Part shown: positions 12,101 to 28,600 of the stretch, one piece after another | Position numbering within the stretch: position 1 is the first letter of the stretch | Layout: each line of letters opens with the position of its first letter | DNA from: Planctomycetota bacterium | GTDB lineage: Bacteria > Planctomycetota > UBA1135 > UBA2386 | Direction of reading: 5' to 3' | Assembly: GCA_965228735.1 (NCBI GenBank) | Contig: OZ245838.1 | Span: 2,560,001 to 2,624,000 of the forward strand | DNA: 64,000 nt | The notes under the pieces: generated by a model | Seen by the model: only the letters and a program-made list of their open reading frames with translations | Database searches by the model: none | What the model was told of the DNA's origin: nothing | Program-made: the position numbers and the translations under genes

Positions 12101-12113
12101 AAGGTGCGTTCAT
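9111..12113 (-). CDS. ~1000-aa surface lipoprotein with Big_5-like Ig domain(s) and a YVTN-like beta-propeller (paralog A)
   Basis: Lipobox LALGG-C; GQTGIDPTSTILVRFNKPV (Ig-like); DPVSMAMSPNMTRLAVTNFASASVSFIDI (propeller blade); Thr/Asn/Gly-rich. Confidence 0.85.
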   Translation of the reverse strand: MNAPSQSRSPARSLAGLALFASLSLPLALGGCEGGTKGDPDNRGDFKVVSISTGTGAVYPYRIRTVDSFGNPTTNVINIETETQLQDNVNGSNGVLPVAALATTALLPDGNPGNHFLHFTFSHKLDVDSILSNLLANQSNSGLTGALNLLAYDPATETSTTLRGRGFVNGFTYYNVGGVLEKVQAVEADGSGIRVLDARANGFPSYAGAADLVGKKSFVFVADTNNDLTSIETFPANRLIRIVVTNAVRDTENDILDAEVGVATTVGVDTNPPQVLGFLNTPQIIPGNGQTGIDPTSTILVRFNKPVQPGEVGSFFDPAQFTPATGGLTLQVTAAANTFAVLYHADPVSFGDLMNYNITPAYSLPGNSPVDIQVQNTTINSLTGMTVGQPVTTQFTTGTGPGIVNAPVAPEAVYVGIGGAEPGVSVIDLNGLGQGTGDINNTRFPLNPNIGITGVTPPLAPGTSNLDAGSAGVFTLTQDTNGETRLLRDPVVGDVTDIHIGAPLDLVFNNENINRNAARFNQINQLLGTQEPGNTIHQPPIPNPPRLVFPPPNPNRAIFGEEPTTASATGPIGTLVTGGPPAGCIVSPLNSLVVGNPFANQQGQVGIFGTQFTGVFVGPQPPPGSPPPPPPFCPFTARQQIGHFLYVLDRDNRQVVVVNSNRFTVLDTIPLSDPVSMAMSPNMTRLAVTNFASASVSFIDINPLSQNFNTVVTETSVERGPTAVAWQPDGEDILVVSTDANAMTVISAFDFTVRRTVSGFMNRPIDIVATERYQLTGNLSGVYYAYILNETGTVAIYESGPDGINGYGFNDIVGAVTNVSFPRARALQFDHQATQGGVLVGHIDDTGLGQVSRLWLTSTPVGQQPLNPNIGGFILPPTYRQKEWTVTQRFGGSNSTVASGQFLSGNSIIDIGTDNLFNSGGLLGQTTPFSAAFTTTPYNHSGKHVVKQGINAAIIANVPQFLFIALSDVGKVDVIEVETGTRIATIDVPGVRVVADYWRQ

Positions 12114-12540
12114 GGGATGAGCTCCGTCCAGCCGACTGCCCCTGGCATGGTTCCCAGTGAGGCGGGAACCAGCGAGGGCGGCGACCATCGACGGCATAGG
12201 GTCTGCTCCGGAAGCGTCCAGTCTCGGGAGACGCAGCACGTTACAGCGTGCGGAGATCCATTCAACGCCGGAGAAAGCGTGAAGGGCCGATGCCGTGAAG
12301 GGTCGATGCCATCGACCCGCCATCGGCCCACCACGCTCCACCCCCGACGAGGGAGCGGATCTTGCGTCCACCGACACGGAGCCGGCAGTTGTCCAAGGGC
12401 CCGCAAACAGAGTACCTCGGGCGCCTCAGGCCGGCCATTTTCTTCAAACGCCGGGCGGGCGCGGTCGCCTTCGCCCCATGGATCAACTCAAATCACTGCA
12501 ATAGCGAGTCTTCCGCATGTTTCTGCTCTTCCGCAACAGA

Positions 12541-12631: not shown

Positions 12632-15600
12632 TCACTGCCGCCAGTAGTCGGCGACGACCCGGACTCCGGGCACGTCGATGCTGGCGATCCGGGTGCCGGT
12701 ACCGATCTCGAGCACGTCGATCCGCCCGGCGTCGGACAGCGCGACGAACAGGAAGCGCGGCAGGACCGCCGGGGCGACCGTGGTCGTCACCTGCTTCACC
12801 GTGTGCTTGCCGGAGTGGAAGTACGGCGTCGTCGCGAACGGCGACGAGAACGACGTGATCTGCCCCGGCAGGCCGCCGTAGTTCGTCAGGTTGTCCGTGC
12901 ACAGATCGATGACGGAGTTGCCGCTGAGGAACGGCGCGTTCGCCGCCGTCGAGTTCGTGCCGCCGATGCGCTGCGTGACGGTCCACTCCTTCTGGCGGTA
13001 GGTCGGCGGCAGCACGAAGCCACCGATGTTGGGGTTGAGCGGCGAGACGCCGAGCGGCGTGCTCGTGAGCCCGAGCCGCGAGACCTGCCCGAGACCGCTG
13101 TCGTCGATGTGGCCGATCATGACCCCGCCGAACGTCGCGCCGTGATCGTAGATCATCGACTTGCTGCGCGGGAACGCGACGTTGGCGACCGTGCCGATCA
13201 CGTCGTCGAACCCGATGCCGTTCACGCCGTCGGGACCCGATTCGTAGATCGCGACCGTGCCGTTGTCGTTGAGGATGTAGGCGTAGTAGACGCCGGCGGC
13301 GTTGCCGCTCGTCTGGTAGCGCTCCGACACGATGATCTCGACCGGGCGGTTGAGGAATCCGGCGACCGAGCGCCGGACCGAGAAGTCGAGCGCCGAGATG
13401 ATCGTGACGACGTTGGCATCGGTCGACGCGACGAGCACGTCCTCGCCATCGGGCTGCCACGAGATCGCGGTCGGCCCCTGTTCGACGGTCGTCTCCGCGA
13501 CGACCTGGTGGAACGTCGGACTCAGGGGATCGATGTCGATGAAGCTGACCGTCGCACTCGCGAAGTTGGTCACCGCGAGGCGGGTCATGTTCGGCGACGT
13601 CGCCATGCTGATCGGGTCGGACAGCCGGATCGTGTCGAGCACCGTGAAGCGGTTGCTGTTGACGACGACGATCTGCCGGTTGTCGCGATCGAGCACGTAG
13701 AGGAAGTGACCGATCTGCTGCCGCGAACTGAACGGGCAGAAGGGCGGCGGCGGCGGCGGTGAGCCCGGCTGCGGCTGGGGGCCGACGAACAGACCCATGA
13801 ACGCCGTGCCGAACACGCCGACCGTGCCGATGGAATTGGCGAACGGGTTGCCGACGACCAGCTGGTTGAGCGGCGAGACGATGCACCCGGCCGGCGGCCC
13901 GCCCGTCACGAGCGTGCCCGTGGGGCCGTAGCTCGACGTCGTCGTCGGCTCGGCGCCAAAGATGGCGCGATCCGGGTTCGGCGGCGGGAACACGAGCGGC
14001 GGCGGGTTGGGCACGGGCGGCACGGTGATCGTGTTGCCCGGCATCGCGGACCCCGTGAGCGGGTTCACCTGGTTCGCGCGCGACGCGTTGCGGTTGATGT
14101 TCTCGTTGTTGAACACGAGATCGAGTGGCGCGCCGATGTGGATGTCGTTGACGTCGCCGACGACCGGGTCGCGCAGCAGTCTGGTCTCACCCGTCGTGTC
14201 CTGCGTCAACGTGAGCGCACCCGCGCTGCCCGCATCGAGGTTGCTCGTGCCGGGCGCCATCGGCGGGTGGAGACCCGTGATCTGCAGGTTGGGGTTGAGC
14301 TCGAACCGCGAGGTGGCGAGATCGCCCGTGCCCTGACCGAGACCGTTGAGGTCGATGACGCCGACCCCGGGGGTCGCGCCACCGAACCCGACGTAGATCG
14401 CCTCGGGCGCGACGGGCGCGTTGACGATGCCCGGCCCGCGGCCGGTGCGGAAGTTCGTCGTCACGGCCGTGCCGAGCCGGTCGCCGGAGAGGCCACGGAT
14501 CGTCGTATCGAGGATCGCGATCTCGATCGGCGAGTCCCCGGGGAGGCTGTAGGCCGGCGTGATCACGTAGTTCATCAGGTCGCCGTAGCTCACGGGATCG
14601 GCGTGGAACGGCACCGGGAACGTGCGCGCGGCCGCGGTCGCGGACAGCGACAGACCGCCGGCGGGCGGCGTGAACTGCGTCGGATCGAAGAACGAACCGA
14701 CGTCGGCCGGCTGCACCGGCTTGTTGAAGCGCACGAGGATCGTCGTGCCCGGGTCGATGCCGGTCTGCGAGTTGCCCGGGATGACCTGCGGCGTCGTGGA
14801 GAAGCCGAGCACCTGCGGCGGATCCGGGTCGACGCCGACCGTCGTAGCCGTCGAGACCTCGGCTTCGAGGATCCCGCCTTCGCTGTCCTGCACAGCGTTG
14901 GTCACGACGAGCCGCAGCAGACGGTCGCTCGGGAACGTCTCGATCGTCGTGAGATCACCGTCACTGTCCGCGACGAACGTGAACGACTTCTTCGAGACGA
15001 GGTCCGCCGCCCCGGCGAACGCGGGGAAGCCCGCGGCGCGCGCGTCGACGACTTCGATGCCGTCGCCGCTCGGGCGCACGGCCTGGACCTTCTGCAGCTG
15101 CCCACCGTCGTTGAAGTAGGTGTAGCCGTTCACGAAGCCGCGACCCTTGACCGTCGTCGCGGTCTCGGTCGCCGGATCGTAGGCCAGCAGGTTGAGGGCA
15201 CCCGTCAGACCCGAGCTGCTCTGGTTGGCCAGTTGATCGCTGAGGATCGAGTCGATGTCGAGCTTGTGGCTGAACGAGAAGTGCAGGAACTGGTTGCCCG
15301 GGTTGCCGTCCGGCAGGATCGCCGTCGTCGCGAGCGTCGCGACCGGCAGCACGCCGTTGGTCCCCGAGACGTTCGCCTGCAGTGTCGCGGTGCTCTCGAT
15401 GTTGAGCACCTGGTTGGTCGGGTTCCCGAGCGGATCGACCGCGCGGACGCGGTACGGATAGACCGCGCCGGTGCCCGTGCTGATGCTGACGACCTCGAAG
15501 TCACCGCGGTTCTCGGGATCACCACCGGAGCCGCCGGCACACCCCGCGAAGGCGGCGAACGCCGTCGTGAGAAGCAGCGTGGATCCGGGCAGCGACCGCG

Positions 15601-15679
15601 GGATGGAGAGCAGGCAGGCCGGATCGCGGCTGCGATCGGCGGGCCCCTGGCGTGGGAGTCTGTTCATGACGACCCGCAT
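12632..15679 (-). CDS. ~1010-aa surface lipoprotein, tandem paralog B (alternative start 15667)
   Basis: Lipobox FAAFAG-C; collinear with and highly similar to 9111..12113; identical C-terminus IDVPGVRVVADYWRQ. Confidence 0.85.
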   Translation of the reverse strand: MRVVMNRLPRQGPADRSRDPACLLSIPRSLPGSTLLLTTAFAAFAGCAGGSGGDPENRGDFEVVSISTGTGAVYPYRVRAVDPLGNPTNQVLNIESTATLQANVSGTNGVLPVATLATTAILPDGNPGNQFLHFSFSHKLDIDSILSDQLANQSSSGLTGALNLLAYDPATETATTVKGRGFVNGYTYFNDGGQLQKVQAVRPSGDGIEVVDARAAGFPAFAGAADLVSKKSFTFVADSDGDLTTIETFPSDRLLRLVVTNAVQDSEGGILEAEVSTATTVGVDPDPPQVLGFSTTPQVIPGNSQTGIDPGTTILVRFNKPVQPADVGSFFDPTQFTPPAGGLSLSATAAARTFPVPFHADPVSYGDLMNYVITPAYSLPGDSPIEIAILDTTIRGLSGDRLGTAVTTNFRTGRGPGIVNAPVAPEAIYVGFGGATPGVGVIDLNGLGQGTGDLATSRFELNPNLQITGLHPPMAPGTSNLDAGSAGALTLTQDTTGETRLLRDPVVGDVNDIHIGAPLDLVFNNENINRNASRANQVNPLTGSAMPGNTITVPPVPNPPPLVFPPPNPDRAIFGAEPTTTSSYGPTGTLVTGGPPAGCIVSPLNQLVVGNPFANSIGTVGVFGTAFMGLFVGPQPQPGSPPPPPPFCPFSSRQQIGHFLYVLDRDNRQIVVVNSNRFTVLDTIRLSDPISMATSPNMTRLAVTNFASATVSFIDIDPLSPTFHQVVAETTVEQGPTAISWQPDGEDVLVASTDANVVTIISALDFSVRRSVAGFLNRPVEIIVSERYQTSGNAAGVYYAYILNDNGTVAIYESGPDGVNGIGFDDVIGTVANVAFPRSKSMIYDHGATFGGVMIGHIDDSGLGQVSRLGLTSTPLGVSPLNPNIGGFVLPPTYRQKEWTVTQRIGGTNSTAANAPFLSGNSVIDLCTDNLTNYGGLPGQITSFSSPFATTPYFHSGKHTVKQVTTTVAPAVLPRFLFVALSDAGRIDVLEIGTGTRIASIDVPGVRVVADYWRQ

Positions 15680-15905: not shown

Positions 15906-17942
15906 ATGACCGATCCGCTCGAGCAATACCGCGACAAGCGCGACTTCGACAAGACGCCGGAGCCGGCCCCGAAGCCGCTGCGGCCGGGCGTCGATCGGGT
16001 CTTCGTCGTGCACCGTCACGAGGCGCGCAACCTGCACTACGACCTCCGACTCGAGCGCGCTGGCGTGCTGTGTTCGTGGGCCGTGCCGCGCGGGTTCAGC
16101 TACGACCCGAGCGAGAAGCGACTCGCGGTGCGCACCGAGGACCATCCGATCGAGTACGAGCACTTCCACGGTCGCATCCCCAAGGGCGAGTACGGCGCGG
16201 GCACGATGACGATCTGGGACCGGGGTCACTACGAGCTCGTCAAGATCACGGACTGGGACGAGGCGATCGCGCGCGGCGAGGTGAAGGTGCGACTCTACGG
16301 GCGCCGGCTGCGCGGTGAGTGGCACCTGGTTCGCACGACGCAGAGCAAGAACAGCTGGCTCCTGTTCAAGTCGCGCGACCTGTTCTCGGGGCCCGCGCGC
16401 GACAGCGCCCTGGGCGTCGATCTGACGACGGCCGGACGGGCGGGCGCGACCGACGAGCTGCAGCCGATGCGGGCCGGCGCCGAACCTCGCCAGGTGTTCA
16501 CCGACCCCGCGTGGGTGTTCGAGATGGAGTTCGCCGGCCAGCGCGCGTTCGCGAGCAAGACCGATGACGCGGTCGGACTGCATGGCGTTCCCGACGTGCC
16601 GGCGCCGCTCCTCGACGCGCTCCGGCAGCTGCGCTGCGACCGCGCGGTGCTCGATGGCGTGCTCGTCGCTCTCGGCGACGACGGTCGCCCGGATCGCGAA
16701 GCACTGACGCAAGCGCTGCATGGCGGCAACGCCGACCGGATCGCCTACTACGCGTTCGACCTCGTCCACTGGGAGGAGTTCGACCTGCGGACATTGCCGC
16801 TGTTCGACCGCAAGGCCGCGCTGCGCACGCTCGTGCCCGACGATCCGCGACTGCTCTACGCCGATCACGTCGCGGGCAACGGCCCCGCCCTGCTGCAGGC
16901 GATCCGCGACGCCGGCCTGCCGGCGGCGATCGGCAAGCGCGGGGCGAGCCCGTACTCGGGCGGAGAGTCCGAGGACTGGGTGCGCATTCCAGCGGACGGC
17001 GCAGCCGCTGCGCCGAACGAACCGGAGTCATCGAAGGAGTCCCGCCCGCTCAACGTGCGCTTCCGGCCGACCAACCTCGCCAAGGTCTACTGGCCGGCCG
17101 AGGGCCACACCAAGGGCGACCTGCTCGCCTACTACCAATCGATCGCGGACGTGCTCCTGCCCCACCTGCGCGACCGACCCGTGCACCTCAATCGCTATCC
17201 CGACGGCATCGACGGCAAGTCGTTCTACCAGCGCGAGGCCAAAGAGGGCACGCCGGACTGGGTGCGCACCGTGCCCATTCCGCACGACGACGAGACGGTG
17301 CCGCATCACGTCATCGACGACGTCGAGACGCTGATCTACTGCGCCAACCTCGGCAGCATCGATCTGCACCCCTGGTTGTCGCGGTATCCGACCATCGACA
17401 CGCCCGACTACGCCGTCCTCGACATCGACCCGAAGGAGGCGCCGTTCACCCACGTCGTCCGCATCGCGAAGGCCGCGGGGCGCCTGCTGCGCGGCATCGG
17501 CCTGCGCCCGGTGCTCAAGACCTCGGGCAAGAACGGCATGCACGTCTTCGTGCCGCTGCTGCCGCAGTACACCTACGACCACGCGCGGATGTTCACCGAA
17601 GCCGTCGCCCGCGTCCTCGCACGCGAGCTCCCCGACATCGCGACGACCGAACGCGTGCCGAGCCAACGCGACGGCAAGGTCTACCTCGACTTCCTGCAGA
17701 ACCGGAGGTCACAGACGATCGTGCCGGTCTACTCCGTTCGCCCCGTCCGCGGCGCCACCGTGTCGACGCCGCTGATGTGGGACGAGCTCGAGAACGGCGA
17801 CCTGTCGCCGAAGAACTTCACCATCCACACCGTCCCCGAACGCGTGATGCAACACGGCGACCTCTTCCGCAACGCGCTCGAGGACCACCAGGACCTGATG
17901 GCGGCGATCGGTGCGTTGGAGGACGTGCTGAAGAACGGGTGA
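15906..17942 (+). CDS. ligD: LigD-type NHEJ protein: phosphoesterase, degenerate (inactive-looking) ligase NTase domain, primase-polymerase
   Basis: PE: YRDKRDFDKTPEP, HEARNLHYDLRLE, SWAVPRG, EDHPIEY. POL: TNLAKVYWP..TKGDLLAYY, RYPDGI, LDIDP, KTSGKNGMHV, YLDFLQN. Ligase motifs are substituted and there is no OB domain. Confidence 0.93.
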   Translation: MTDPLEQYRDKRDFDKTPEPAPKPLRPGVDRVFVVHRHEARNLHYDLRLERAGVLCSWAVPRGFSYDPSEKRLAVRTEDHPIEYEHFHGRIPKGEYGAGTMTIWDRGHYELVKITDWDEAIARGEVKVRLYGRRLRGEWHLVRTTQSKNSWLLFKSRDLFSGPARDSALGVDLTTAGRAGATDELQPMRAGAEPRQVFTDPAWVFEMEFAGQRAFASKTDDAVGLHGVPDVPAPLLDALRQLRCDRAVLDGVLVALGDDGRPDREALTQALHGGNADRIAYYAFDLVHWEEFDLRTLPLFDRKAALRTLVPDDPRLLYADHVAGNGPALLQAIRDAGLPAAIGKRGASPYSGGESEDWVRIPADGAAAAPNEPESSKESRPLNVRFRPTNLAKVYWPAEGHTKGDLLAYYQSIADVLLPHLRDRPVHLNRYPDGIDGKSFYQREAKEGTPDWVRTVPIPHDDETVPHHVIDDVETLIYCANLGSIDLHPWLSRYPTIDTPDYAVLDIDPKEAPFTHVVRIAKAAGRLLRGIGLRPVLKTSGKNGMHVFVPLLPQYTYDHARMFTEAVARVLARELPDIATTERVPSQRDGKVYLDFLQNRRSQTIVPVYSVRPVRGATVSTPLMWDELENGDLSPKNFTIHTVPERVMQHGDLFRNALEDHQDLMAAIGALEDVLKNG

Positions 17943-18025
17943 ACATACCGAACCCGGCATCTTTGTCTCACCCCAGCGCCTCCGGCGCTGGGGTGAGACA
18001 AAGATGCCGGGTTCCGTATGTTCAC
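17939..18025. repeat. Long palindrome (42-bp arms, 1 mismatch, 3-nt loop)
   Basis: GTGAACATACCGAACCCGGCATCTTTGTCTCACCCCAGCGCC-tcc-reverse complement; contains the ACCGAACCCG core shared with the REP-like repeats at 19909 and 46410. Confidence 0.93.
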
Positions 18026-18028
18026 GGC

Positions 18029-19897
18029 ATGCGCTTCCTCTTGCTGCTGTTCGCTGCCACCCTCGCCGGCACCCTCAGCGCCCAACGCACGGATCACCTG
18101 GTCCTCGTCGAGGCCGAGTCGTTCCACGACACGGGCGGCTGGGTCGTGGACCAGCAGTTCATGGACTTCATGGGCTCGCCGATGCTGCTCGCGCACGGGC
18201 TCGGCATTCCGGTCGAGGACGCGGTCACCGCGGTCACGTTCGACCATCCCGGGCGCTATCGCGTCTACGTCCGCACCCGCGACTGGGTCGCGCCGTGGAA
18301 CGCGCCGGGCGCGCCCGGCCGCTTCAAGATCCGCGTCGACGGCGTCGAACTCAGCACGACGTTCGGCATCGAGGGCGCGGACTGGCACTGGCAGAGCGGC
18401 GGCAGCGTCACGGTCGGCGAACGCGCGACGGTCGCGCTGCACGATCTCACGGGCTTCGAAGGGCGGTGCGATGCGATCCTGTTCGTGCACGGCGACTCGC
18501 AGTTCACGCCGCCCGACGGCGGCGACGAGCTCGCCGAGCTGCGCGGCAAGCTGCTCGGTTGGGACCGGGCGCCGGAGGACGCCGGCCCGTTCGACCTCGC
18601 GGTCATCGGCGGCGGCATCGCGGGCACGGCCGCGGCGATCACGGCCGCGCGCCTCGGGCTCACCGTCGCGCTGATCCAGGACCGGCCCGTGCTCGGCGGC
18701 AACGGCAGCTCCGAGGTGCGCGTCTGGCCCGAGGGTCACACCAACCACGAGCCCTACCCGCACATCGGCGACGTCGTGCGCGAGCTCGTGCGCAAGAAGG
18801 GCCGCGGCGACGGCAACGCACGAAACGCGGACATCTACGAGGACCGCCGCAAACTCGACCTCGCGCGCGCCGAACCCAACCTCACGCTGCTGCTCGAGCA
18901 TCGTGCCAACGCGGTGACCGGCAGAGACCGCGAGCACATCGACGCGGTCATCGCACAGCACACGCGCAGCGGCCGACGAAAGCGCGTCGCGGCCCGCTGG
19001 TTCTGCGACTCGACGGGCGACGGCGTGATCGGCGCGCTCGCCGGGGCCGCGTTCGACATGACCGAGACCGGTCACATGGGCGTCAGCAACCTGTGGAACG
19101 TCGGCAACGTCGAGAAGAACGAGTATCAGCTGCGCTGCGAGTGCGAGGACCCCGACGACCCGCTGTCGCTCAACTTCGTCACGTCGAACGAGCCCGCGCC
19201 GTTCCCGCGCTGTCCGTGGGCCGTCGACCTGTCGGACAAACCGTTCCCCGGCCGCAAGGACGGCAACCTCGGCCAGCTCGGCGGCTGGTTCTGGGAGACC
19301 GGCTTCGACCGCCACCCGATCACCGATCTCGAACGCATGCGCGACCAGAACCTGCGCGCGATGTACGGCGCCTGGGACGCGCTCAAGAACGTCGACGGGC
19401 GCCACCCCAACCATCGGCTCAAGTGGGCCGCGTTCATCGCCGGCAAACGCGAGTCGCGTCGCCTGCTCGGTGACGTGTTGCTCACGGGCGAGGACTTCCA
19501 CGATCAGAAGGAATGGCCCGACGCCGCGTTCCCGTGCACGTGGCACATCGACCTGCACTTCCCGAAGGCGGCCTACGCGGAGGGCCACGCTGGCGACGAG
19601 TTCATCTCCGACTACACGCGCGGCAAGGGCTACAAGTACCAGGGGCCGTACTGGGCGCCCTACCGCGCGCTCTACAGCAAGAACATCGACAACCTGTTCA
19701 TGGCCGGCCGCGACATCAGCGTCACGCACGAGGCGCTCGGCGCGGTGCGCGTCATGCAGACGTGCGGGATGATGGGCGAGATCGTCGGCATGGCCGCGAG
19801 CCTCTGCAAGACGCACGACTGCAGTCCGCGCGCGGTCTACGCCCAGCACCTCGACGAACTGAAGGCGCTGATGCGGCGCGGCGCGGGCCGCCAGTAG
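18029..19897 (+). CDS. Secreted FAD-dependent oxidoreductase (FAD_oxidored family) with an N-terminal beta domain
   Basis: Signal peptide MRFLLLLFAATLAGTLSAQ; DLAVIGGGIAG..AAITAARLG, DRPVLGGNGSSEVR, DSTGDG, KRESRRLLGD, PYRALYSKNIDNLFMAGR. Confidence 0.9.
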   Translation: MRFLLLLFAATLAGTLSAQRTDHLVLVEAESFHDTGGWVVDQQFMDFMGSPMLLAHGLGIPVEDAVTAVTFDHPGRYRVYVRTRDWVAPWNAPGAPGRFKIRVDGVELSTTFGIEGADWHWQSGGSVTVGERATVALHDLTGFEGRCDAILFVHGDSQFTPPDGGDELAELRGKLLGWDRAPEDAGPFDLAVIGGGIAGTAAAITAARLGLTVALIQDRPVLGGNGSSEVRVWPEGHTNHEPYPHIGDVVRELVRKKGRGDGNARNADIYEDRRKLDLARAEPNLTLLLEHRANAVTGRDREHIDAVIAQHTRSGRRKRVAARWFCDSTGDGVIGALAGAAFDMTETGHMGVSNLWNVGNVEKNEYQLRCECEDPDDPLSLNFVTSNEPAPFPRCPWAVDLSDKPFPGRKDGNLGQLGGWFWETGFDRHPITDLERMRDQNLRAMYGAWDALKNVDGRHPNHRLKWAAFIAGKRESRRLLGDVLLTGEDFHDQKEWPDAAFPCTWHIDLHFPKAAYAEGHAGDEFISDYTRGKGYKYQGPYWAPYRALYSKNIDNLFMAGRDISVTHEALGAVRVMQTCGMMGEIVGMAASLCKTHDCSPRAVYAQHLDELKALMRRGAGRQ

Positions 19898-20005
19898 GCC
19901 CAGCTGACGGCGGTACCGAACCCGCTTCGTTTCCGCCACCGCCGATCCAGCGCAGGGCCTGGATGGACGCCAGGATGCCACCCACACGTGTGGCGGATTC
20001 GAAGC

Positions 20006-21997
20006 GCCGGGTGGCCCTGGGGGTCTCCCCCCAGGGCTCCCACAGATCCGGACGTGCGCGGCTAACGCATCCGGCTCGTCAGCGACAAGGGCTCGCTGCG
20101 TAGACCGACCGGGTCAGCCGGGGCGGAGGAAGCGGGTATGCACGCAGCAGTTGCTCGAAGCGGGCCCACGACATGTAGGCCGCCCGCGAGCGCCGGCTCA
20201 GCCACCGATGCCAGATGCGACGGGCCTCGTACCATACGCGACGTAACGCAGCAGAGTTGCCGGTCACGCCGAAGTAGAGGTAGTGCCCCCGTAGCTTCGA
20301 GCACAGGGTGGAGTACTGGACGCGGACCTTGTCGTGCCGATTGCGACGGCACCAATCCCGTAGCCCAGTCAGGGTACGGGTCACGACGTGTCGTGTGGTG
20401 CGCCGCTGCACGGTCCATCGGCCGCGCCGGGAGCGTGACCAGTGATGGGTGAAGCCCAGGAAGTCGAAAGTGCCGCTCCCCGCCGCGCCGTCTTCGGGCG
20501 GTTGGAAGCGGACTAACCGGGTCTTGTCCGGATGCAGTGTGAGGCCGAAGCGCCCGAGCCTTTGGGCCAGGATCGACGACATCGCACGTGCATCGGCTTC
20601 GACGGCAAACAGGATCACGAAGTCGTCCGCATAGCGGACCAACTCCGCGCGACCGGCAAGCCTCGGCTTGACTTCCTCGACAAACCAACGGTCCAGCACT
20701 GCGTGCAAATAGATGTTCGCCAGCAGCGGCGAAATCACGCCTCCTTGTGGGGTGCCTTTGCGAGAGCGATGCAGCGCACCGTCCTCCTGCACCCCCGCCT
20801 TCAGCCACTTGTCGATCAGTCGACGGAACACTCCGTCGCGCACCCGCTGGTCGAGGATCGCTCGCAGATGGGTCGGCTCCAGGTTGTCGAAGAAACCTTG
20901 GATGTCGACTTCCAACAGCCAGCCGCCACCCATCGACATCGCATGCTTCCAAAGCGATTCCAGTGCCGTGTGCGGCGAGCGACCGGGACGGAAGCCGTGC
21001 GAGCAGTCCAAGAAGTCCTGCTCATATACCGCCTCCATCACTTGCGTCACCGCCCGCTGCAAGACCTTGTCCTCCAGCGTCGGCACTCCGATTGGACGCG
21101 TGCCACCCTTCCCTTTCGGGATGTGCACGCGCCGGACCGGTGGTGCGCGATAGCGCCCTGACTTCGCGCGTTCGTGCAGGTCCGCGAGGTTGCCCTCGAG
21201 ATCCTGCTCGTAGTCGCGAGCCGTGACGCCGTCGACACCAGGAGCTTTGGACTTCTGCGTGCGGCGATACGCCTCCCGCAGAAGCGCGATGTCCATGTGG
21301 TGTGCCAGTGTGGTCAGGACCAGGTCTGGTCGCTGCCTCGCCAGCTCCGCTACCCGCCGGAGTTTCGTGGAGACCTGCTCGGAGCCCGTCGTCTCCGTGG
21401 TCGGTCCGTCCAGCGGTTCCTTGTCGCCGGTGACGCCCTTCCCTCCGCCGGGTCCCCGTGGGGCGGGTTCCCCGGACTCTTTGGTACTATGACGCACTCC
21501 GACTCCCTCGTTGGCGTCCCGCGTCGCTTCGTTTCCTTCGCTCGGCGGTACCGGCCGTGTGTCCGGATTCCTTGACGGCACCGACGCGGACACGACGTCG
21601 CGGCCCTGGAGAGTTGGTTTCCGGGCCCCAGCCGGAGTTGACGATCGGACCAATCGAGGGGATCCCAGGTTCCTGGGGAGTCCGATGGATGCGTGCGGTC
21701 GTTCTCAGGACCCCGGAGAGACTTCCGGGCCAAGCCGGTTGCGGCCCTTCCATGTTGCCTTCCGATGAACCCACCACGTCGGCTCTCTCGCTGTCGGTAC
21801 TTTCGGGGCTCAGTCGCGCCGCCCACATCCTCGCTGTCTACGCTTCGCAGCGGCGGTTACCCGGTCGCCACGCAAGACTCGCTTCCGGCTGGTGGCTAGC
21901 CTTCGCCGGGCGGGTTTCGTCACCCGCGGGACTCCAATACGGGGTTCTCATTCCTGTCAGGTCATGATTTCTCCCGTCCAGGCTTCGCCTGGCGCAA
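20006..21997 (-). mobile_element. Complete group II intron (1992 nt, IIB-like with EBS1/EBS2, IEP resembling bacterial class E)
   Basis: 5' end TTGCGCCAGG; domain V GAGCCGGATGCGTTAGCCGCGCACGTCCGGATC at 20045..20077; domain VI with a candidate branch A, ending ACCCGGC; EBS1 GGGTTC (21767..21772) and EBS2 GTACCG (21795..21800); removing the intron restores the repeat arm. Confidence 0.95.
20079..21401 (-). CDS. ltrA: Group II intron reverse transcriptase/maturase (no endonuclease domain); start codon uncertain
   Basis: APGVDG, RRVHIPK..RPIGVP..DKVLQ, SHGFRPGRS, DIQGFFD, GTPQGGVISPLLANIYL, RYADDFV, HPDKT, FDFLGF, followed by an X/thumb domain. Confidence 0.95.
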   Translation of the reverse strand, partial: TTETTGSEQVSTKLRRVAELARQRPDLVLTTLAHHMDIALLREAYRRTQKSKAPGVDGVTARDYEQDLEGNLADLHERAKSGRYRAPPVRRVHIPKGKGGTRPIGVPTLEDKVLQRAVTQVMEAVYEQDFLDCSHGFRPGRSPHTALESLWKHAMSMGGGWLLEVDIQGFFDNLEPTHLRAILDQRVRDGVFRRLIDKWLKAGVQEDGALHRSRKGTPQGGVISPLLANIYLHAVLDRWFVEEVKPRLAGRAELVRYADDFVILFAVEADARAMSSILAQRLGRFGLTLHPDKTRLVRFQPPEDGAAGSGTFDFLGFTHHWSRSRRGRWTVQRRTTRHVVTRTLTGLRDWCRRNRHDKVRVQYSTLCSKLRGHYLYFGVTGNSAALRRVWYEARRIWHRWLSRRSRAAYMSWARFEQLLRAYPLPPPRLTRSVYAASPCR

Positions 21998-22017
21998 GGG
22001 TTCGGTACCGCCACTCT

Positions 22018-22893
22018 CTACGACGTCGGCTGCTCGCCGTTGATCTGCAGGTAGCGGCGGACCTGATCGGCCCAGCGACTGTTCGGATCGAACGACAGGT
22101 AGGCCCGCCAGTGGCGGCGCGCCCTTTCGAGGTCCCCGGCGACGGCGAGCGCCTCGGCGAGGTTGTAGTGCGCGTCGGCGTAGTGCGGCACGAGCGCGAG
22201 CGCGCGCTCGAGCGCCGCGATCGCGCCTTCGCGATTGCTCAGCTCGCCGCGCACGACACCGAGGTTGTTCCACGCCTCGGCGTAGTCCGGGCTGATCTCG
22301 ACCGCGGCCTCGAAGCACGCGCAGGCTTCGCGCCGGCGCCGCAACGTGTAGTAGCAGTTGCCGAGATTGAAGTGCGCCTCGGGGTTGTCCGTCTCGACGG
22401 CGTGCTGATACGCGCGCACGGCGTCCTCGATGCGACCCGCGGCCTCGGCCTCGACGGCGATCGCAAACCACGCCTTCGGCGACCGCATCGTCGGCAGCTT
22501 GTCGCCGCCGTGACGCTCCACGAGCTGGTCGAAGTCGAACAGCATCTGACCGCCCGGTTCGACGAGCCGGCCCTCGGACGTCCGCACGGTGACGCGACGA
22601 CGACCGATGCTCGCGAGCAGACCGGTCAGCGCTTCGTCGGGATCCTCGACGACGGTGCGCGCGAGGCGCCACGCGTGCGCGATGCGCGGCGCGGTCCAAC
22701 CCGCGCGCCACAGCTTGGCCAACGTGCGCGCGCGGCCGAGCGCCGAGAACGCGAACTTGCCGACGCTGCCACGCTGCGGCTCGATGAACTCGCGGTCGAT
22801 CCAGCGCTTGACCACCGTGCCCGGCAACCCGCACAGTTCAGCGAGTTCTTTCGCCGTGAACGAGCGTTGGGTCGCGCTGAATTCGATCGTCAT
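22018..22893 (-). CDS. MerR-like HTH plus TPR repeat protein, translationally coupled to the NHEJ ligase
   Basis: N-terminal FTAKELAELCGLPGTVVKRWIDREFIEP (MerR-type HTH); TPRs EAHFNLGNCY, AEAWNNLGVV, ADAHYNLAEA; ATGA overlap with the ligase stop. Confidence 0.85.
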   Translation of the reverse strand: MTIEFSATQRSFTAKELAELCGLPGTVVKRWIDREFIEPQRGSVGKFAFSALGRARTLAKLWRAGWTAPRIAHAWRLARTVVEDPDEALTGLLASIGRRRVTVRTSEGRLVEPGGQMLFDFDQLVERHGGDKLPTMRSPKAWFAIAVEAEAAGRIEDAVRAYQHAVETDNPEAHFNLGNCYYTLRRRREACACFEAAVEISPDYAEAWNNLGVVRGELSNREGAIAALERALALVPHYADAHYNLAEALAVAGDLERARRHWRAYLSFDPNSRWADQVRRYLQINGEQPTS

Positions 22894-23822
22894 ACGCCGT
22901 CGGGGTCGACCAGCCCTTGGAACACGGGTGCGCGCAGGGCGCCGCTCGCGGTCTGCTCGACGAAGCTGACGGTACAGAAGAGCCCAGGCGTGATCCAGCA
23001 ACCGTTGAGGTCGGTTTCGACGAGCGGTCGGTCGGTGCGGCGCGCGAACATGAGCTCGCGCAGCTGCTGTTTGCTGCTCTCCGTGAGTCCCGACCCGACC
23101 CTGCCGACGCACCGCAACGTGCCGTCTAGATCCGTCGCGACGATGAGCGACTTGAAGTCCTGTTCGCCGCGCTCGTCGTCGGGTTCGTAACCCATGACGA
23201 CACAATGCACGGAACGCACCGGCTTGATCTTCTGCCACGCATCGCCGCGATCACCCGGCCGATACGGTGCGTCGATGCGCTTGCTCACGATGCCCTCGAG
23301 CCGCTGCTCGACCGCGGCTTCGAACAGGTCGATGCCGTTCGTCGCAACTCCGTCCGACAGCACGAGTCGCGCGTTTCCGACGGACTCGACCAGGGTCGCG
23401 AGCCGGGCGCGCCGCTCGAGGAACGGCAACGGCATCGTGGCCTCGAAGTCGCGATAGAGCAGGTCGAAGACGACGTAGACGACCGGACTCATCTGCGATC
23501 GACGTAACGCGTCGCCCGGACTCGCGTTCTCGCGGGACAGGATCGCGCGGAAGTCGGGCCGGCCGGCGTCGTCGAGCACGACGAGCTCACCGTCGAGCAC
23601 GGTGCCGGCGGGCAGGTCGGCCAGGAACTCGAGCTCAGGATAACGCCCGCGCAGGTCGCGGCGGCGGCGACCGTGGATTCTATGTTGACTGTTCTCCACA
23701 TAGGTGACCGCGCGCACACCGTCCCACTTGATCTCGAAGAAGTGGTCCGCCGAGTCGAACGGCTTGCCGATGCGGGCCAGCATCGGCTCGACGTGCTCCG
23801 GCAGTCGCGGCGAATCGGTCAC
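22890..23822 (-). CDS. Stand-alone ATP-dependent DNA ligase (LigD-LIG/LigC type)
   Basis: Motif I EIKWDGVR, III VLDGELV, IIIa VFDLLY, IV LEGIVSK, V WQKIK; OB fold VGRVGSGL...LRAPVFQGL. Confidence 0.93.
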   Translation of the reverse strand: MTDSPRLPEHVEPMLARIGKPFDSADHFFEIKWDGVRAVTYVENSQHRIHGRRRRDLRGRYPELEFLADLPAGTVLDGELVVLDDAGRPDFRAILSRENASPGDALRRSQMSPVVYVVFDLLYRDFEATMPLPFLERRARLATLVESVGNARLVLSDGVATNGIDLFEAAVEQRLEGIVSKRIDAPYRPGDRGDAWQKIKPVRSVHCVVMGYEPDDERGEQDFKSLIVATDLDGTLRCVGRVGSGLTESSKQQLRELMFARRTDRPLVETDLNGCWITPGLFCTVSFVEQTASGALRAPVFQGLVDPDGV

Positions 23823-23841: not shown

Positions 23842-24756
23842 TCAGTTGCCCGACGCCTTGCGCGACTTCTTCTTCGCGCCGGCACTCGGCGCGAGCTTCT
23901 TCGGCGCGTCGGCCTCGCCTTCCGCCCCATCGTCGCCACCCGACTCGCCGTCGCCCGAAACGAGCTTCGTCTGCGCCTCTGCGACGCTCTTCTTCAGCGC
24001 GTCCATGAGGTTGAGGATCTTCGGTTCCTCGTGGTCCGGCGCCTGCACGAGCTCCTCGCCCTGCACCTTGGCCTCGATCACCTTGCGGAGCTTCGCGACG
24101 TATTGATCGGTGTACTTGCCGAAGTCGAACTCCTCGATCTTGCTCGCGCCGATCAGCGTGTTGGTCAACGCGATCTCCTCGGGCTTGAACTCGATCTCGT
24201 CGACCTCGTCCTCGTAGTCGGCGGGGTTCTTGACCTTCTTCTTGTAGTGCAGGCCGGTCATCACGATCAGCTTGCCCTTGGGTCGGATCATCACGAGCTG
24301 CTCGCGTCCCGACATCACGACCTGCGCGATCGCGCAGACCTTGTTCTCGACCATGCCGTGGTGCAGCAGCGCGTACGGCCGCTCACCCGCCACGCCGTCG
24401 GGCAACAGGTAGTGCGTCTTGCCCGCGTAGTAGAGCCCGTCGATCTCGTCCTGCGGGATGAAGCCGTCGATGCCGATCGCGCGGTCCGTCTTGGTGCGCA
24501 GCTTGTCGAGCTCCTCGGGGTCGACGACGACGTACTGGTCCTTGCTGTGCTCGTACCCGCTGACGATGTTCTCGCTCTTGAGCTCACCGTGCTCGGGGCA
24601 GACCTTCTGGTACTTCACCCGACTGTGGCAGTCCTTGTGCAGCTGGTTGAGCCGCACCTCCGACGAGCTGTCGTTCGCGGTGAACGCCTTGACCGGGACG
24701 GAGACGAGGCTGAGCTTGATGAAGCCCTTCCAGGAGGTGCGTGAGGGGACGGCCAT
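23842..24756 (-). CDS. ku: NHEJ DNA end-binding protein Ku
   Basis: RTSWKGFIKLSLVSVPVKAFTA, LNQLH, IVSGYE..KDQYVVV, LNLMDALKKSV, basic C-terminal tail. Confidence 0.97.
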   Translation of the reverse strand: MAVPSRTSWKGFIKLSLVSVPVKAFTANDSSSEVRLNQLHKDCHSRVKYQKVCPEHGELKSENIVSGYEHSKDQYVVVDPEELDKLRTKTDRAIGIDGFIPQDEIDGLYYAGKTHYLLPDGVAGERPYALLHHGMVENKVCAIAQVVMSGREQLVMIRPKGKLIVMTGLHYKKKVKNPADYEDEVDEIEFKPEEIALTNTLIGASKIEEFDFGKYTDQYVAKLRKVIEAKVQGEELVQAPDHEEPKILNLMDALKKSVAEAQTKLVSGDGESGGDDGAEGEADAPKKLAPSAGAKKKSRKASGN

Positions 24757-24922: not shown

Positions 24923-25621
24923 TCAGCCGAGCGCGAGGAAGCGCCGCGCGAGCGCCGGACCCGCGCACGAGTCCTCGTGCTTCATGAACACGAACGCGTC
25001 GGAGAACCCGCGTTCGACCATGCGGTCGCGCCAGCGGCGCAAGTCGTCGTCCTCGTAGCCCTCGCGCCGCAAGCGCACGTAGCACCACGACGCCGTGTCC
25101 AAGAGCTCGGGCTCGGGCTCGCCCTCCTTGTCACTCGTGACGAGCGCGACGTCGTGCTCCTTCAGCACGGCGAGCGCGTCGTCCTCGAGCCAGCTGTCGT
25201 GCGCGAACTCGAGCGCGACCTTGATGCCTGCCTGCTGGTGCGAGAGGAAGTCGCGCAGCACGTCGACGTCCTTCCGCACGTACTTCGGCACCTGGTAGAA
25301 GACGCAGCCGAGCGTGCCCTCGAGCGGCGCGATCGACCGGAACAGCCACTCGCACAGCTCACCACAGTCGACGAGCTTGGCGCTCCACGTGATGCGCTTC
25401 GTCGCCTTGACCGCGAAGCGGAAGTCGTCGCCGACCTGCCCCTTCCACTTGGCCACCGTCTCGGCCTTGGGCATGCGATAGAACGTGTTGTTGAGCTCCA
25501 CCGCCGGCAGCTGGCTGGCGTAGTACGTGAGGTAGCCGTCCTTCTTGAGGTCCTCGGGGTAGAACGCAGGCCGCCACTCGTCGTAGCTGAACCCGCTCGT
25601 GCCGACGTGGAACTTCGTCAT
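24923..25621 (-). CDS. DUF72 (YecE-like TIM barrel) protein
   Basis: VGTSGFSY.EW...FYP, VELNNTFYRMP, FRFAVKA, YVRLR, VFMKHE. Confidence 0.92.
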   Translation of the reverse strand: MTKFHVGTSGFSYDEWRPAFYPEDLKKDGYLTYYASQLPAVELNNTFYRMPKAETVAKWKGQVGDDFRFAVKATKRITWSAKLVDCGELCEWLFRSIAPLEGTLGCVFYQVPKYVRKDVDVLRDFLSHQQAGIKVALEFAHDSWLEDDALAVLKEHDVALVTSDKEGEPEPELLDTASWCYVRLRREGYEDDDLRRWRDRMVERGFSDAFVFMKHEDSCAGPALARRFLALG

Positions 25622-25658
25622 CTCGACCTCTCGATCACCCGTCTGGCCCAGAACACTC

Positions 25659-28600
25659 TCAGGCCCAGAGCACCAGCCCGCGCACCTTGGCGTCGTGCGG
25701 GCCGTGACCCGGGATCCGAACGCGCATGCCGTAGCTGTACTGCCCCGAGTGCTCGACACGATACCCGCCGTCGAAGCCGTGCACCCGCGCATCGCTCTCG
25801 CCCGAGCCGTCCGGCCTCACGAGTCCGGCGTGCTGCATCGGCACGACGACCACCGCGGGGTCGTCGCCGGACCGCGTGACGACGAGCTCGACGAGCACGT
25901 CCTCCGGCGTGAGCCCCGCGAGATCCGCTTCGAGCCGGACCTCGAGGTGCTGCCCGACCTTGAAGCTCAGCAGATCGACCGTCGTCGCCGCGGTGATGCG
26001 CACCTTGTCGAACGCCGACCGCAGGCGCGCGAAGTTCTTCGCGGCCTCGCGCGCGGGCCGCTTGCGCTCGCCCTGCTCGACGAAGTAGTTCGCGGCCAGC
26101 GGTCGATACGCCCGTTCGAGGTAGTCGCCCACCATGCGATCGGTGCTGAACATCGCCGGCACGGTCGCGAGCGTGTGTCGCATCCGCTTCGCCCACTCGG
26201 TCGGCACGCCAGCGCCGTCACGATCGAAGTAGGTCGCGACGACGTCCTCCTCGAGCAACCGGTAGAGCGCCGTCGCGTCGGCTTCGTTCTGCAGCTCCTG
26301 CCGCTCGTAGACCCTGGGGCCGGCGATCGTCCAGCCGTTCTCGCCGTCGGCCGCTTCGGGCCACCAGCCGTCCGCGATCGACAGGTTGAGGACGCCGTTG
26401 GCCGCGGCCTTCATGCCCGACGTGCCGCTGGCCTCCTCCATCCGGGTCGGCGTGTTGACCCAGACGTCGACGCCCTGGACGAGCGCGCGCGCGACCGCCA
26501 TGTCGTAGTTGTCGACGAAGAACACCTTGCCGATGAACTCCGGCGACCGCGCGATCTGCACGATCGACTTCAGGATGTCCTGCCCGCGTTCGTCGCGCGG
26601 GTGCGCCTTGCCGGACACGACGATGCGCACGGGGCGCTCGGGGTCGGAGAGAATCCGCTGCAGCCGCTCCGGATCGGAGAACAGCAGATGCGCGCGCTTG
26701 TAGGGCGCGAACCGCCGGGCGAACCCGAGGTAGAGCGCGTCCTCCGCGAGGCCGGCGAGCATCGAGCTCAGGACCGTCGGACTGTCGCCGCGCGACTGGA
26801 ACGTGGTCGTGAGCACGTTGCGCACCGCGGCCAGCATGCGCGACTTGTTCTGCCGGTGCGCAGCCCAGAGCTTCGGAAGCGCGATCGACTCGGCGGCCTC
26901 GAAGTGCTGCGGCCGCACCGCGCCCACGTCGCCGCCGCGCACGAGCCGGCCGATGTCCGGGTGCGTCCACGTCGAAAGGTGCACCCCGTTGGTCACGGCC
27001 GCGACCGGGATCTCGTCCTGCAGCAGACCCGGCCAGAAGTCCGCGAGCAGCTTCTGCGACGCCACGCCGTGCAGCTGGCTCACGCCGTTCACGAAGCCCG
27101 CGAAGTTCATCGCGAGATACGTCATGTTGAAGTCCGCCGCGGAGCTGCCGCCCGTCGCCTGGCCGAGCGCGAAGAAGCGCTCCCACGGCAGCCCGACCCA
27201 CTCCTCGGCGTCGCCGAAGTAGCGTCGCACGAGATCCTCGCCGAAGCGGTCGTGGCCCGCGGGCACGGGCGTGTGGGTCGTGAACAGCGTCGTGCGCGCG
27301 ACGTACTCGCGCGCCGCGTCGAACGGCAGGCCCTCGCCGCGCACGAGGCGGCTGACCCGCTCGAGCGTGAGGAACGCGGCGTGCCCCTCGTTCATGTGGT
27401 AGACCGCCGGCCGCACGCCGAGACCGCGCAGCAGTCGCACGCCGCCGCGGCCGAGCACGATCTCCTGCTGGATGCGCATCTCCGAGTCGCCGCCGTAGAG
27501 GTTGCGCGTGATGTCGCGGTCTTCGGGACGGTTCTTCGGCAGGTTGGCATCGAGCAGATACAGCGTGACGCGGCCGACCTGCGCCTTCCACGCCTGCAGG
27601 AAGACCTCGCGCCCGGGCAACGGCACCGAAGTTTCGAACGTGTTGCCGTCCGCGTCGCGCACCGGATCGAGCGCGAGCTGCCGCGGCAGGTTCTCCTTGT
27701 CGACCGCGACCTGCTGGCCGTCGCTCGACACCTGCTGGTGCATGTAGCCGAAGCGATAGAACAAACCGACGCCCACGAGCGGGATGCCGAGATCGCTCGC
27801 GCTCTTCAGGTGGTCGCCGGCGAGGATCCCGAGCCCACCGCTGTAGACGGGCAGCGAATGGTGGATGCCGAACTCCGCCGAGAAGTACGCGACCGGGCGC
27901 TCCTGGGACAGCGCCGCGTTCCGGCCGTTCGAATCGCCGTCGTGCCCTACGGTCAGCGGCTCGTCGACCGTCGCCATGTAGTCGTCGAAGCGGGCGACCG
28001 TCGCGCGCAGCCGTTCGAGATAGTCGGCATCGGCCGCCTTGCTCTCGAGCGCCTCGAGGCTCGCCCCCTGCAGGAACGCGACCGGGTTCTCGCCACCGGC
28101 CGCAAACCCGTCGGCGAGCTCTTCGAACAGGTCACGCACGCCCGGGTTCCAGACCCACCAGAAGTTGCGCGCGAGGCGTTCGAGACCGCGCAGACTCTCG
28201 GGCAGCGTCGCGGCCGCCTCGAACGTCGACAACCGCGGCGTCTTGCTCGCCCCGATCGACGGCAGCGCGCGGCGCGGCATGCGAAACTGCACGACCCCGG
28301 CCACGCTGCGCCGCTGCACCGCGGCGATCGCCTCACCGTAGGCGGTCTCGTAGTGCGCGAAGAAGTGCTGCCACTCGGTGCGTCCCGCCGCCGCGATGCA
28401 GCGCTCGCGCAGCGCGTCGCCTGCGCCGTGCTCGCCGTCGAGGTAGGCCCGCATCGTCGTGAGGAAGGACTCCACCACCTCCGCGTACGGCGCCCGTTCG
28501 CGCGCGAGCACCGCGATGCCGTCGGCCGGCGAGAGGCCCTCCGCGGTCGCCCACCGACCGAAACCCGCGAGGTCCGTCGTGATCGTCGGCACGCCGACGG

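Follow-up and report, generated by a model that had tools for sequence, protein, structure and literature searches.

We analysed a 64,000-nucleotide stretch of a Planctomycetota genome (assembly GCA_965228735.1, contig OZ245838.1, positions 2,560,001 to 2,624,000), hereafter the window, which carries the genes of a system for bacterial NHEJ (non-homologous end joining; Table 1). One of them, ligD*, encodes a LigD-like protein, LigD*, in which a 3'-phosphoesterase (PE) domain and a polymerase (POL) domain flank a nucleotidyltransferase (NTase) domain that has kept the fold of a DNA ligase and lost its catalytic residues. On the opposite strand lie ku, a stand-alone ATP-dependent ligase starting 19 nt after ku, and a gene for a protein with a MerR-like helix-turn-helix (HTH) and tetratricopeptide repeats (TPR), the start of which overlaps the ligase stop codon (ATGA). 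A preliminary description of the window had proposed a LigD with a dead ligase domain and ligation supplied in trans by the separate ligase, and had overlooked the HTH-TPR gene as well as an FAD oxidoreductase and a group II intron in the 5-kb gap.

Table 1. Features of the split NHEJ system, in window coordinates
Feature	Position	Strand	Basis
ligD* (PE / dead NTase / POL, without OB fold, 678 aa)	15906..17942	+	ORF, Pfam, NCBIfam, AF2 model
3'-phosphoesterase domain; H38, H44, D46, R48, H80, Y84 intact	15906..16376	+	Pfam, alignment
Dead ligase NTase domain, residues 183-362, ligase fold kept	16452..16991	+	phmmer, Foldseek, omega 0.20
Motif I Lys position, Glu208 (GAG)	16527..16529	+	alignment; covaries with position 360
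Motif III Glu position, Val252	16659..16661	+	Glu in 0/81 and 0/79 homologues
Bulk of the predicted Ku-tail groove, residues 317-338 (plus M207 and Y282)	16854..16919	+	complex prediction, family-specific residues
Motif IV metal-ligand Glu position, Pro339	16920..16922	+	alignment
Motif V Lys positions, Arg360 and Pro362	16983..16991	+	alignment
AEP polymerase domain; D506, D508, H546, D595 intact	17064..17885	+	Pfam, alignment
LigD* C-terminal helix (664-677), Ku-tail-like, predicted to pack on POL	17895..17936	+	models, couplings
MerR-like HTH + TPR helper gene	22018..22893	-	Pfam, locus comparison
Stand-alone ATP-dependent ligase, NTase + OB, six catalytic residues intact (K32 codon 23727-23729)	22890..23822	-	Pfam, NCBIfam, alignment
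ku (TIGR02772 above cut-off)	23842..24756	-	NCBIfam
Ku minimal C-terminal helix, residues 247-262, predicted ligand of dead domain	23971..24018	-	conserved in the system's Ku; model

The ligD* frame is uninterrupted. Pfam matched its PE (LigD_N, residues 36-143) and POL (402-654) domains and left the ligase family unmatched; the NCBIfam model TIGR02779 scored 88.6 bits (cut-off 227.75) over residues 195-361, and this match spans profile positions 9-183 of 302, which comprise the NTase without the OB domain. The PE His/His/Asp triad and the accompanying Arg, His and Tyr, equivalent to P. aeruginosa H42/H48/D50/R52/H84/Y88 (roles according to PMC8656161), are invariant where aligned (161-164 of 172 rows, the remainder being gaps). 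The four POL residues are kept in 166-169 of 172 rows, and TIGR02778 scores above cut-off. An AF2 model of LigD* built from 75 sequences reached a predicted local distance difference test (pLDDT) of 91 and a predicted template-modelling score (pTM) of 0.84, the latter suggesting a fixed domain arrangement, and POL modelled alone reached a pLDDT of 96. Contigs from four runs of four studies span the frame, three of them identical to it and one with nine differences, none at a catalytic codon; an assembly error behind the dead motifs was thus rejected. A sigma-70-type promoter was looked for and not found, and no RNA run was listed among the data sets containing the sequence. A long inverted repeat lies at 17948-17999, directly after the ligD* stop, where the assembled contigs end in all four runs.

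The ligase motifs of LigD* read EMEFAGQR (I; Lys to Glu208, Asp to Ala210), DGV (III), PAAIGK (IV) and WVRIP (V). In the alignment with Mycobacterium tuberculosis (Mtb) LigD, the catalytic residues K481, D483, E530, E613, K635 and K637 (roles taken from PMC8656161) correspond to E208, A210, V252, P339, R360 and P362, so none of the six (K-D-E-E-K-K) is kept. The R501 loop and R629 in Mtb numbering are additionally lost. In the Mtb enzyme, E613A or K637A singly abolishes nick sealing (PMC8656161). Moreover, motif V and POL are separated by only about 30 residues (W358 to N390: median 33, maximum 53 in 171 homologues), which leaves LigD* without an OB domain; indeed, PF04679 did not match LigD*, and no OB match was found in any of the 79 dead-type loci described below. 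The stand-alone ligase retains EIKWDGVR, DGE, LEGIVSK and WQKIK, matches PF01068 and PF04679 above cut-off, and belongs to a family in which 51 of 54 orthologues keep all six catalytic residues. All motif readings of the preliminary description were hence borne out, together with its intact PE and POL motifs, its uninterrupted frame and its intact ligase next to ku.

The losses are a property of the family. Residues 165-385, used as the query of a protein search that scored 7992 candidates, brought back 90 proteins; after exclusion of one fragment and eight active-type or partial ligases, 81 were counted (the query and P0004-P0083). The motif I Lys occurs in one of these 81, and the Glu of motifs III and IV as well as the two Lys of motif V in none. 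A scan of a genome collection gave 413 confirmed stretches, and the best 80 retained comprise 79 dead-type loci without OB and a single active one (Nitrospirota). Four of the 79 keep the motif I Lys; these four lack Glu in motifs III and IV, the two Lys of motif V and the OB domain, and three of them have Glu at position 360. When these sets, retrieved by similarity to the dead domain and overlapping with one another, were pooled into 180 dead-type domains, 150 kept none of the six catalytic residues, 29 kept one and a single domain kept two. By record titles, LigD* proteins occur in Planctomycetota, Acidobacteriota, Spirochaetia, Eisenbacteria, Gemmatimonadota and Krumholzibacteriota, with frames intact throughout; the placing of lower-rank names into these phyla is our own assumption.

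We fitted codon models to 21 of 22 LigD* orthologues (G060 was excluded as partial) and to 19 stand-alone ligases. The maximum-likelihood (ML) ratio of nonsynonymous to synonymous rates (omega) was 0.077 for PE, 0.199 for the dead NTase, 0.082 for POL and 0.103 for the active NTase of the stand-alone ligase. Fixing omega at 1 was rejected for the dead domain, where the free estimate of 0.198 gave a log-likelihood (lnL) of -9748.5 against -10156.4, a drop of 408. Pairwise Nei-Gojobori ratios are higher, about 0.33-0.72 for the dead domain; we prefer the ML values because the pairwise ratios are probably inflated by high GC. The dead domain is under purifying selection, and neutral decay was rejected because omega = 1 is excluded and the losses are family-wide. 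The retained pseudo-enzyme of the preliminary description is thereby supported: its orthologues are likewise dead, with at most two of six residues left, and evolve under constraint. We are highly confident that the domain is ligase-dead, selected, and part of a system in which ligation has been outsourced.

Where that ligation resides is indicated by co-occurrence, with the caution that all the counts in this paragraph come from related genomes and hence are not independent samples. Among 61 relatives, 22 have LigD*, and all 22 have both the stand-alone ligase and Ku. Only one further relative, G023, has that ligase; there the ligase is divided between two frames, what remains of ligD* is short, and Ku was looked for without success; G021 and G048 have a four-part LigD and lack the stand-alone ligase. 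For 35 of the 39 dead-type loci without a ligase within 8 kb the genomes, of unstated completeness, were searched, yielding the ligase in 32/35 and Ku in 32/35. Among 301 genomes at Planctomycetota level there were 29 matches in two score groups (13 with an E of 4e-59 or lower, 16 with 5e-46 or higher), and this gap in score, not motif reading, served to class them as dead or canonical type; the separate ligase orthologue was present in 10/10 high scorers not already counted among the relatives, as opposed to 0/16 low scorers (canonical-type). This strict co-occurrence with an intact ku-linked ligase supports the ligation in trans that had been proposed, as far as gene content can. The genome of the window also encodes an NAD-ligase and another ATP-ligase (535 aa). 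As separate observations, G005 (L193, G005:C66) carries both the split system and, on another contig, a canonical four-part LigD, at a contamination of 6%, and in G021 (L079) the canonical four-part LigD faces two tandem ku genes.

The order ku, ligase, HTH-TPR gene is conserved in 17/17 fetched relative ligase loci, and the helper occurs in 38/40 loci of the wider set that show a stand-alone ligase. Ten Acidobacteriota-linked ligase loci (L181-L190) showed no helper in their short flanks. Because the helper is also present in 3/16 genomes with canonical-type LigD, it is not specific to the split system. A BRCT domain was scored, N-terminally, in 2/5 distant helpers tested; the window copy lacks it. 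With ligD* and the helper gene directly facing each other in five relatives, the two elements that lie between them here are later or variable additions. One is a FAD-dependent oxidoreductase (PF12831, 18029-19897, + strand) with a signal-peptide-like start, found at the same place in 2/20 fetched relative regions (L061, L067). The other is a group II intron (20079-21918, - strand) that begins close downstream of the helper, with an intact-looking reverse transcriptase (RT)/maturase (TIGR04416 above cut-off) and Rfam D1-D4 at 21700-21918; the RT match is absent in all 20 relative regions fetched.

The dead domain is still recognizable as a ligase NTase. It matches the Mtb LigD ligase domain 1VS0 by phmmer (E 4.7e-7), and Foldseek aligned its model to 6NHX (E 6.3e-10, root-mean-square deviation 3.3 Å over 191 columns), with further matches to 1VS0 and to ligases of archaea (E about 1e-9 to 1e-10). 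In place of the catalytic centre we found a pair of covarying charges: of the 115 non-redundant sequences with a charge at both position 208 and position 360, 113 have charges of opposite sign there, including reversed K/R-E cases, and the pair is the third-ranked coupling in direct coupling analysis. Such opposite-charge covariation leads us to infer a Glu208-Arg360 salt bridge across the old active site, which would fill it. Whole-protein mutual information gave no clear inter-domain contacts for LigD*.

The preliminary description had suggested that the retained domain is a scaffold that binds Ku or DNA, or a spacer. The two binding roles fared differently, and a purely structural spacer is conceivable. 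DNA binding looks unlikely, because the domain has lost OB, the Arg loop of motif Ia and a conserved Phe that follows 'PD' (position 264) and the net charge is negative (median -4 in dead domains, against a comparison value of +2). Ku binding gains support from a complex prediction of the dead domain with Ku residues 228-266, which gave an ipSAE (interaction score from predicted aligned errors) of 0.74, the best of three controls reaching 0.01; the mark applied was reached by 116/157 solved complexes and 2/215 mismatched pairs. The runs agree in at least 86% of contacts, with a partner pLDDT of at least 60. Ku residues L250-V258 are predicted to lie in a hydrophobic groove formed by M207, Y282, L317-V322, L329, A332, I333 and A336. 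Four groove features, picked after viewing the profiles, occur together in 108/144 dead domains, 0/48 stand-alone ligases and 1/112 active LigD-type ligases, and nine core groove positions have an entropy of 1.04 compared with 1.81 for the rest of the domain. The predicted groove thus appears largely specific to the LigD* family. Related contacts have been described elsewhere: the Ku C-terminus contacts the Mtb LigD ligase domain by mutation and modelling (PMC13717202), its helix is also placed there in bioRxiv 10.64898/2025.12.16.694593, and in B. subtilis the Ku C-terminus on the ligase domain was modelled as the primary Ku-LigD interface, allowing POL action (PMC13201618). We somewhat favour Ku docking, as modelled, as the main job of the dead domain. 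Beyond its minimal helix, Ku of the window has an extended tail (23842-23910, - strand) with a 'K(L/M)APS' motif and, after it, a basic stretch, conserved in most Ku proteins of the split system.

Several points weigh against a selected domain whose job is to dock Ku. The predicted groove differs from the published Mtb site D522/R567/K579/L580 (245/292/304/305 here); the equivalent of that surface is conserved in the dead domains but changed, position 292 being aromatic in 141/144. Because the domain was folded in isolation, PE or POL may cover the groove in full-length LigD*, and a complex-prediction test of this kind can also be passed by close cousins of true partners. Independent dead NTases without the groove residues exist as well. 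Finally, constraint on the dead domain is relaxed, as its omega is double the value for the active NTase.

LigD* itself ends in a Ku-tail-like helix, and similar helices end many canonical LigDs. The helix has a pLDDT of about 88 when modelled on POL alone and 93/88 in the full-length protein, and extra contacts are possible. In a coupling test with an effective depth of about 110, the groove was not enriched (p 0.92), the Mtb-type site gave p 0.009 and a POL site p < 0.001, the POL set having been chosen after seeing the ranks. That this helix fills the predicted groove is not supported, as the groove couplings are not enriched and the helix folds on POL alone. We infer instead that it lies over or near published Ku sites. 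The couplings would fit a Ku that needs a new site, although this signal is weak.

An obvious competitor to Ku docking is that the dead domain merely positions PE and POL as a structural scaffold, with Ku bound elsewhere, for example on POL. The pTM of the three-domain model, the many invariant residues at core positions, the Mtb ligase-domain mutations that alter polymerase activity even without Ku (PMC13717202) and the persistence of at least three independent OB-less dead NTases without groove residues are all in keeping with it. However, POL folds confidently by itself, PE and POL exist as stand-alone solved proteins (5DMP, 5DMU), and the Ku-tail prediction passes its controls on a groove more conserved than the remaining domain, so we regard a mere scaffold as unlikely, though by no means negligible. 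Decidedly improbable is a second chemistry independent of ligation, such as a 5'-deoxyribose phosphate (5'-dRP) lyase. The B. subtilis LigDom lyase survives K24A, E184A, K189A, K206A and K208A (PMC4770248), and K303 is Lys in 142/144 dead and 112/112 active LigD-type domains and in only 4/48 stand-alone ligases; yet the Mtb residue aligned to K303 is Arg, and the dead domain has a negative net charge and lacks DNA-binding features.

The partner could also be the stand-alone ligase or the HTH-TPR helper in place of Ku. The ligase co-occurs as strictly as Ku does, the helper accompanies it in all but two of the wider-set loci, and the ligase may need another recruiter because it differs at the Mtb-type Ku site, where position 305 is hydrophobic in 19/48 stand-alone compared with 96/112 active LigD-type ligases. 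The helper, however, is unseen in the flanks of L181-L190 and present in some canonical-type genomes, and we hold this option to be very unlikely. Slightly less probable still is an adenine-nucleotide sensor that regulates PE and POL. Mtb LigD contacts adenine and ribose through E479, K618 and R486 (PMC8656161), and the matching LigD* residues are retained (E206 79/79, R213 79/79, K344 77/79, with F284 79/79), but every phosphate and metal ligand is lost, the opposite charges at 208/360 (113/115) suggest a self-filled pocket, and the retained residues may be structural. Neutral decay of the domain, or ligase activity persisting through displaced motifs, could be argued from its omega above the other domains and from the motif I Lys in 4/79 loci; the rejection of omega = 1, the intact frames across six named groups and the lack of the motif III/IV Glu, motif V Lys and OB in those four loci make either case extremely improbable.

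The dead domains form one clade (support 100/100) and the stand-alone ligases another (100/99) in a careful 60-row tree, in which the separating branch has a support of 92/90; a quick 209-row tree separates them too. Sisterhood of the two clades was not rejected in the approximately unbiased (AU) test (p 0.659), and a constrained sister tree exceeded the quick free tree by 6 lnL, so that the dead domain may or may not have arisen by duplication of the stand-alone ligase. Four other OB-less LigDs with degenerate motifs were among the best 150 matches when a profile was run against 1.84 billion representatives. As these nest in three separate active clades with starred support in the 60-row tree, they suggest repeated independent inactivation of LigD ligase domains. 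For three of these four, which are clusters with one or two members, recent decay is therefore possible. Candidates for independent inactivation are P0164, P0161, P0239, P0241, P0153 and P0217, LigD-like proteins outside the main dead clade with degenerate motifs and no OB match. A search of the Atlas returned ordinary ligase clusters only.

In the mechanism that we propose, LigD* would serve as the end-processing protein, with PE and POL motifs intact and a non-catalytic ligase domain. The dead domain would likely be the docking site for the Ku C-terminal helix, recruiting PE and POL to the break, the separate ku-linked ligase would likely seal the ends in trans, and the HTH-TPR protein would be a further component. 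A more far-reaching picture is tentative, and we rather doubt it in full: a multi-phylum NHEJ that divides the work of LigD, in which a dead domain locked by a charge swap and bearing a new Ku-tail groove makes LigD* a Ku-tethered end-processor, a dedicated ligase with a BRCT/HTH-TPR factor forms a separate sealing arm, and at least four inactivations reflect a general non-catalytic role.

Other genes surround the system. A DUF72 gene (24923-25792, - strand) lies directly upstream of ku and is near ku in 7/20 fetched relative regions. A 1428-aa fusion of glycogen-synthase-like and glycogen-phosphorylase-like regions (25659-29945, - strand) stands beside further probable glycogen genes. Two tandem paralogues of about 1000 aa with lipoprotein-like N-termini (9111-12377 and 12632-15679, - strand) have almost no Pfam match (the second one was searched), and an orthologue flanks ligD* in seven close relatives.

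How the two tails of Ku engage LigD, and how POL and ligase alternate at one DNA end, are open in the field (PMC13717202, PMC13201618), and the recruitment role could be tested with small proteins because this system naturally separates the catalytic and non-catalytic roles of the ligase domain. It would amount to bacterial NHEJ with three or four components and would provide a DNA-ligase pseudoenzyme. A natural ligase-dead LigD was not described in the titles and abstract openings of the full-text literature searched, Planctomycetota included, subscription papers being outside that scope; the survey PMC7719229, in the parts drawn on, classifies by domain presence, and its supplements may list such architectures. 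Public sources label LigD* proteins as NHEJ ligases, and surveys that count domains would misclassify them because Pfam misses the dead domain in the window protein. The system is a variant of bacterial NHEJ that is real, conserved and coherent.

LigD* shares with the P. aeruginosa/Agrobacterium-type PE-LIG-POL LigD its domain order, PE and POL sites, NTase fold and co-occurrence with Ku, but differs in the six replaced ligase residues, the missing OB domain and an obligate-looking separate ligase. It scores below both LigD family cut-offs (NF004628, 547.5 against 895 bits; TIGR02776, 352.3 against 373.2 bits), and thus conforms to canonical DNA ligase D in PE, POL and Ku and departs from it in the ligase motifs and OB. 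Methanocella paludicola presumably has a four-protein NHEJ system. As here, its end processing (PE 5DMP, POL 5DMU) and ligation reside on separate polypeptides, whereas PE and POL remain fused around a retained dead ligase domain in LigD*. The stand-alone ligase of the window scores 215 bits with TIGR02779 and 118.7 bits with NF006078/PRK08224, below the cut-off of 296 of the latter model, which we take to represent LigC, and is thus in score closer to the LigD ligase domain. We also take K484 of M. smegmatis LigD to be the active-site lysine. The B. subtilis LigDom-Ku model likewise places the minimal C-terminal helix of Ku on the ligase domain, recruiting for POL, although LigDom is active and has an OB domain (PMC13201618). 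Mycobacterial LigC is likewise a minimal NTase-OB ligase sealing in a Ku-dependent pathway (PMC1920237, PMC8068969) and can replace LigD sealing (PMC8068969), and an M. smegmatis LigD K484A laboratory mutant retained repair at lower fidelity (PMC12848934). In mycobacteria substitute sealing is a backup or engineered, whereas the split system has it as a natural state that is fixed in a multi-phylum clade.

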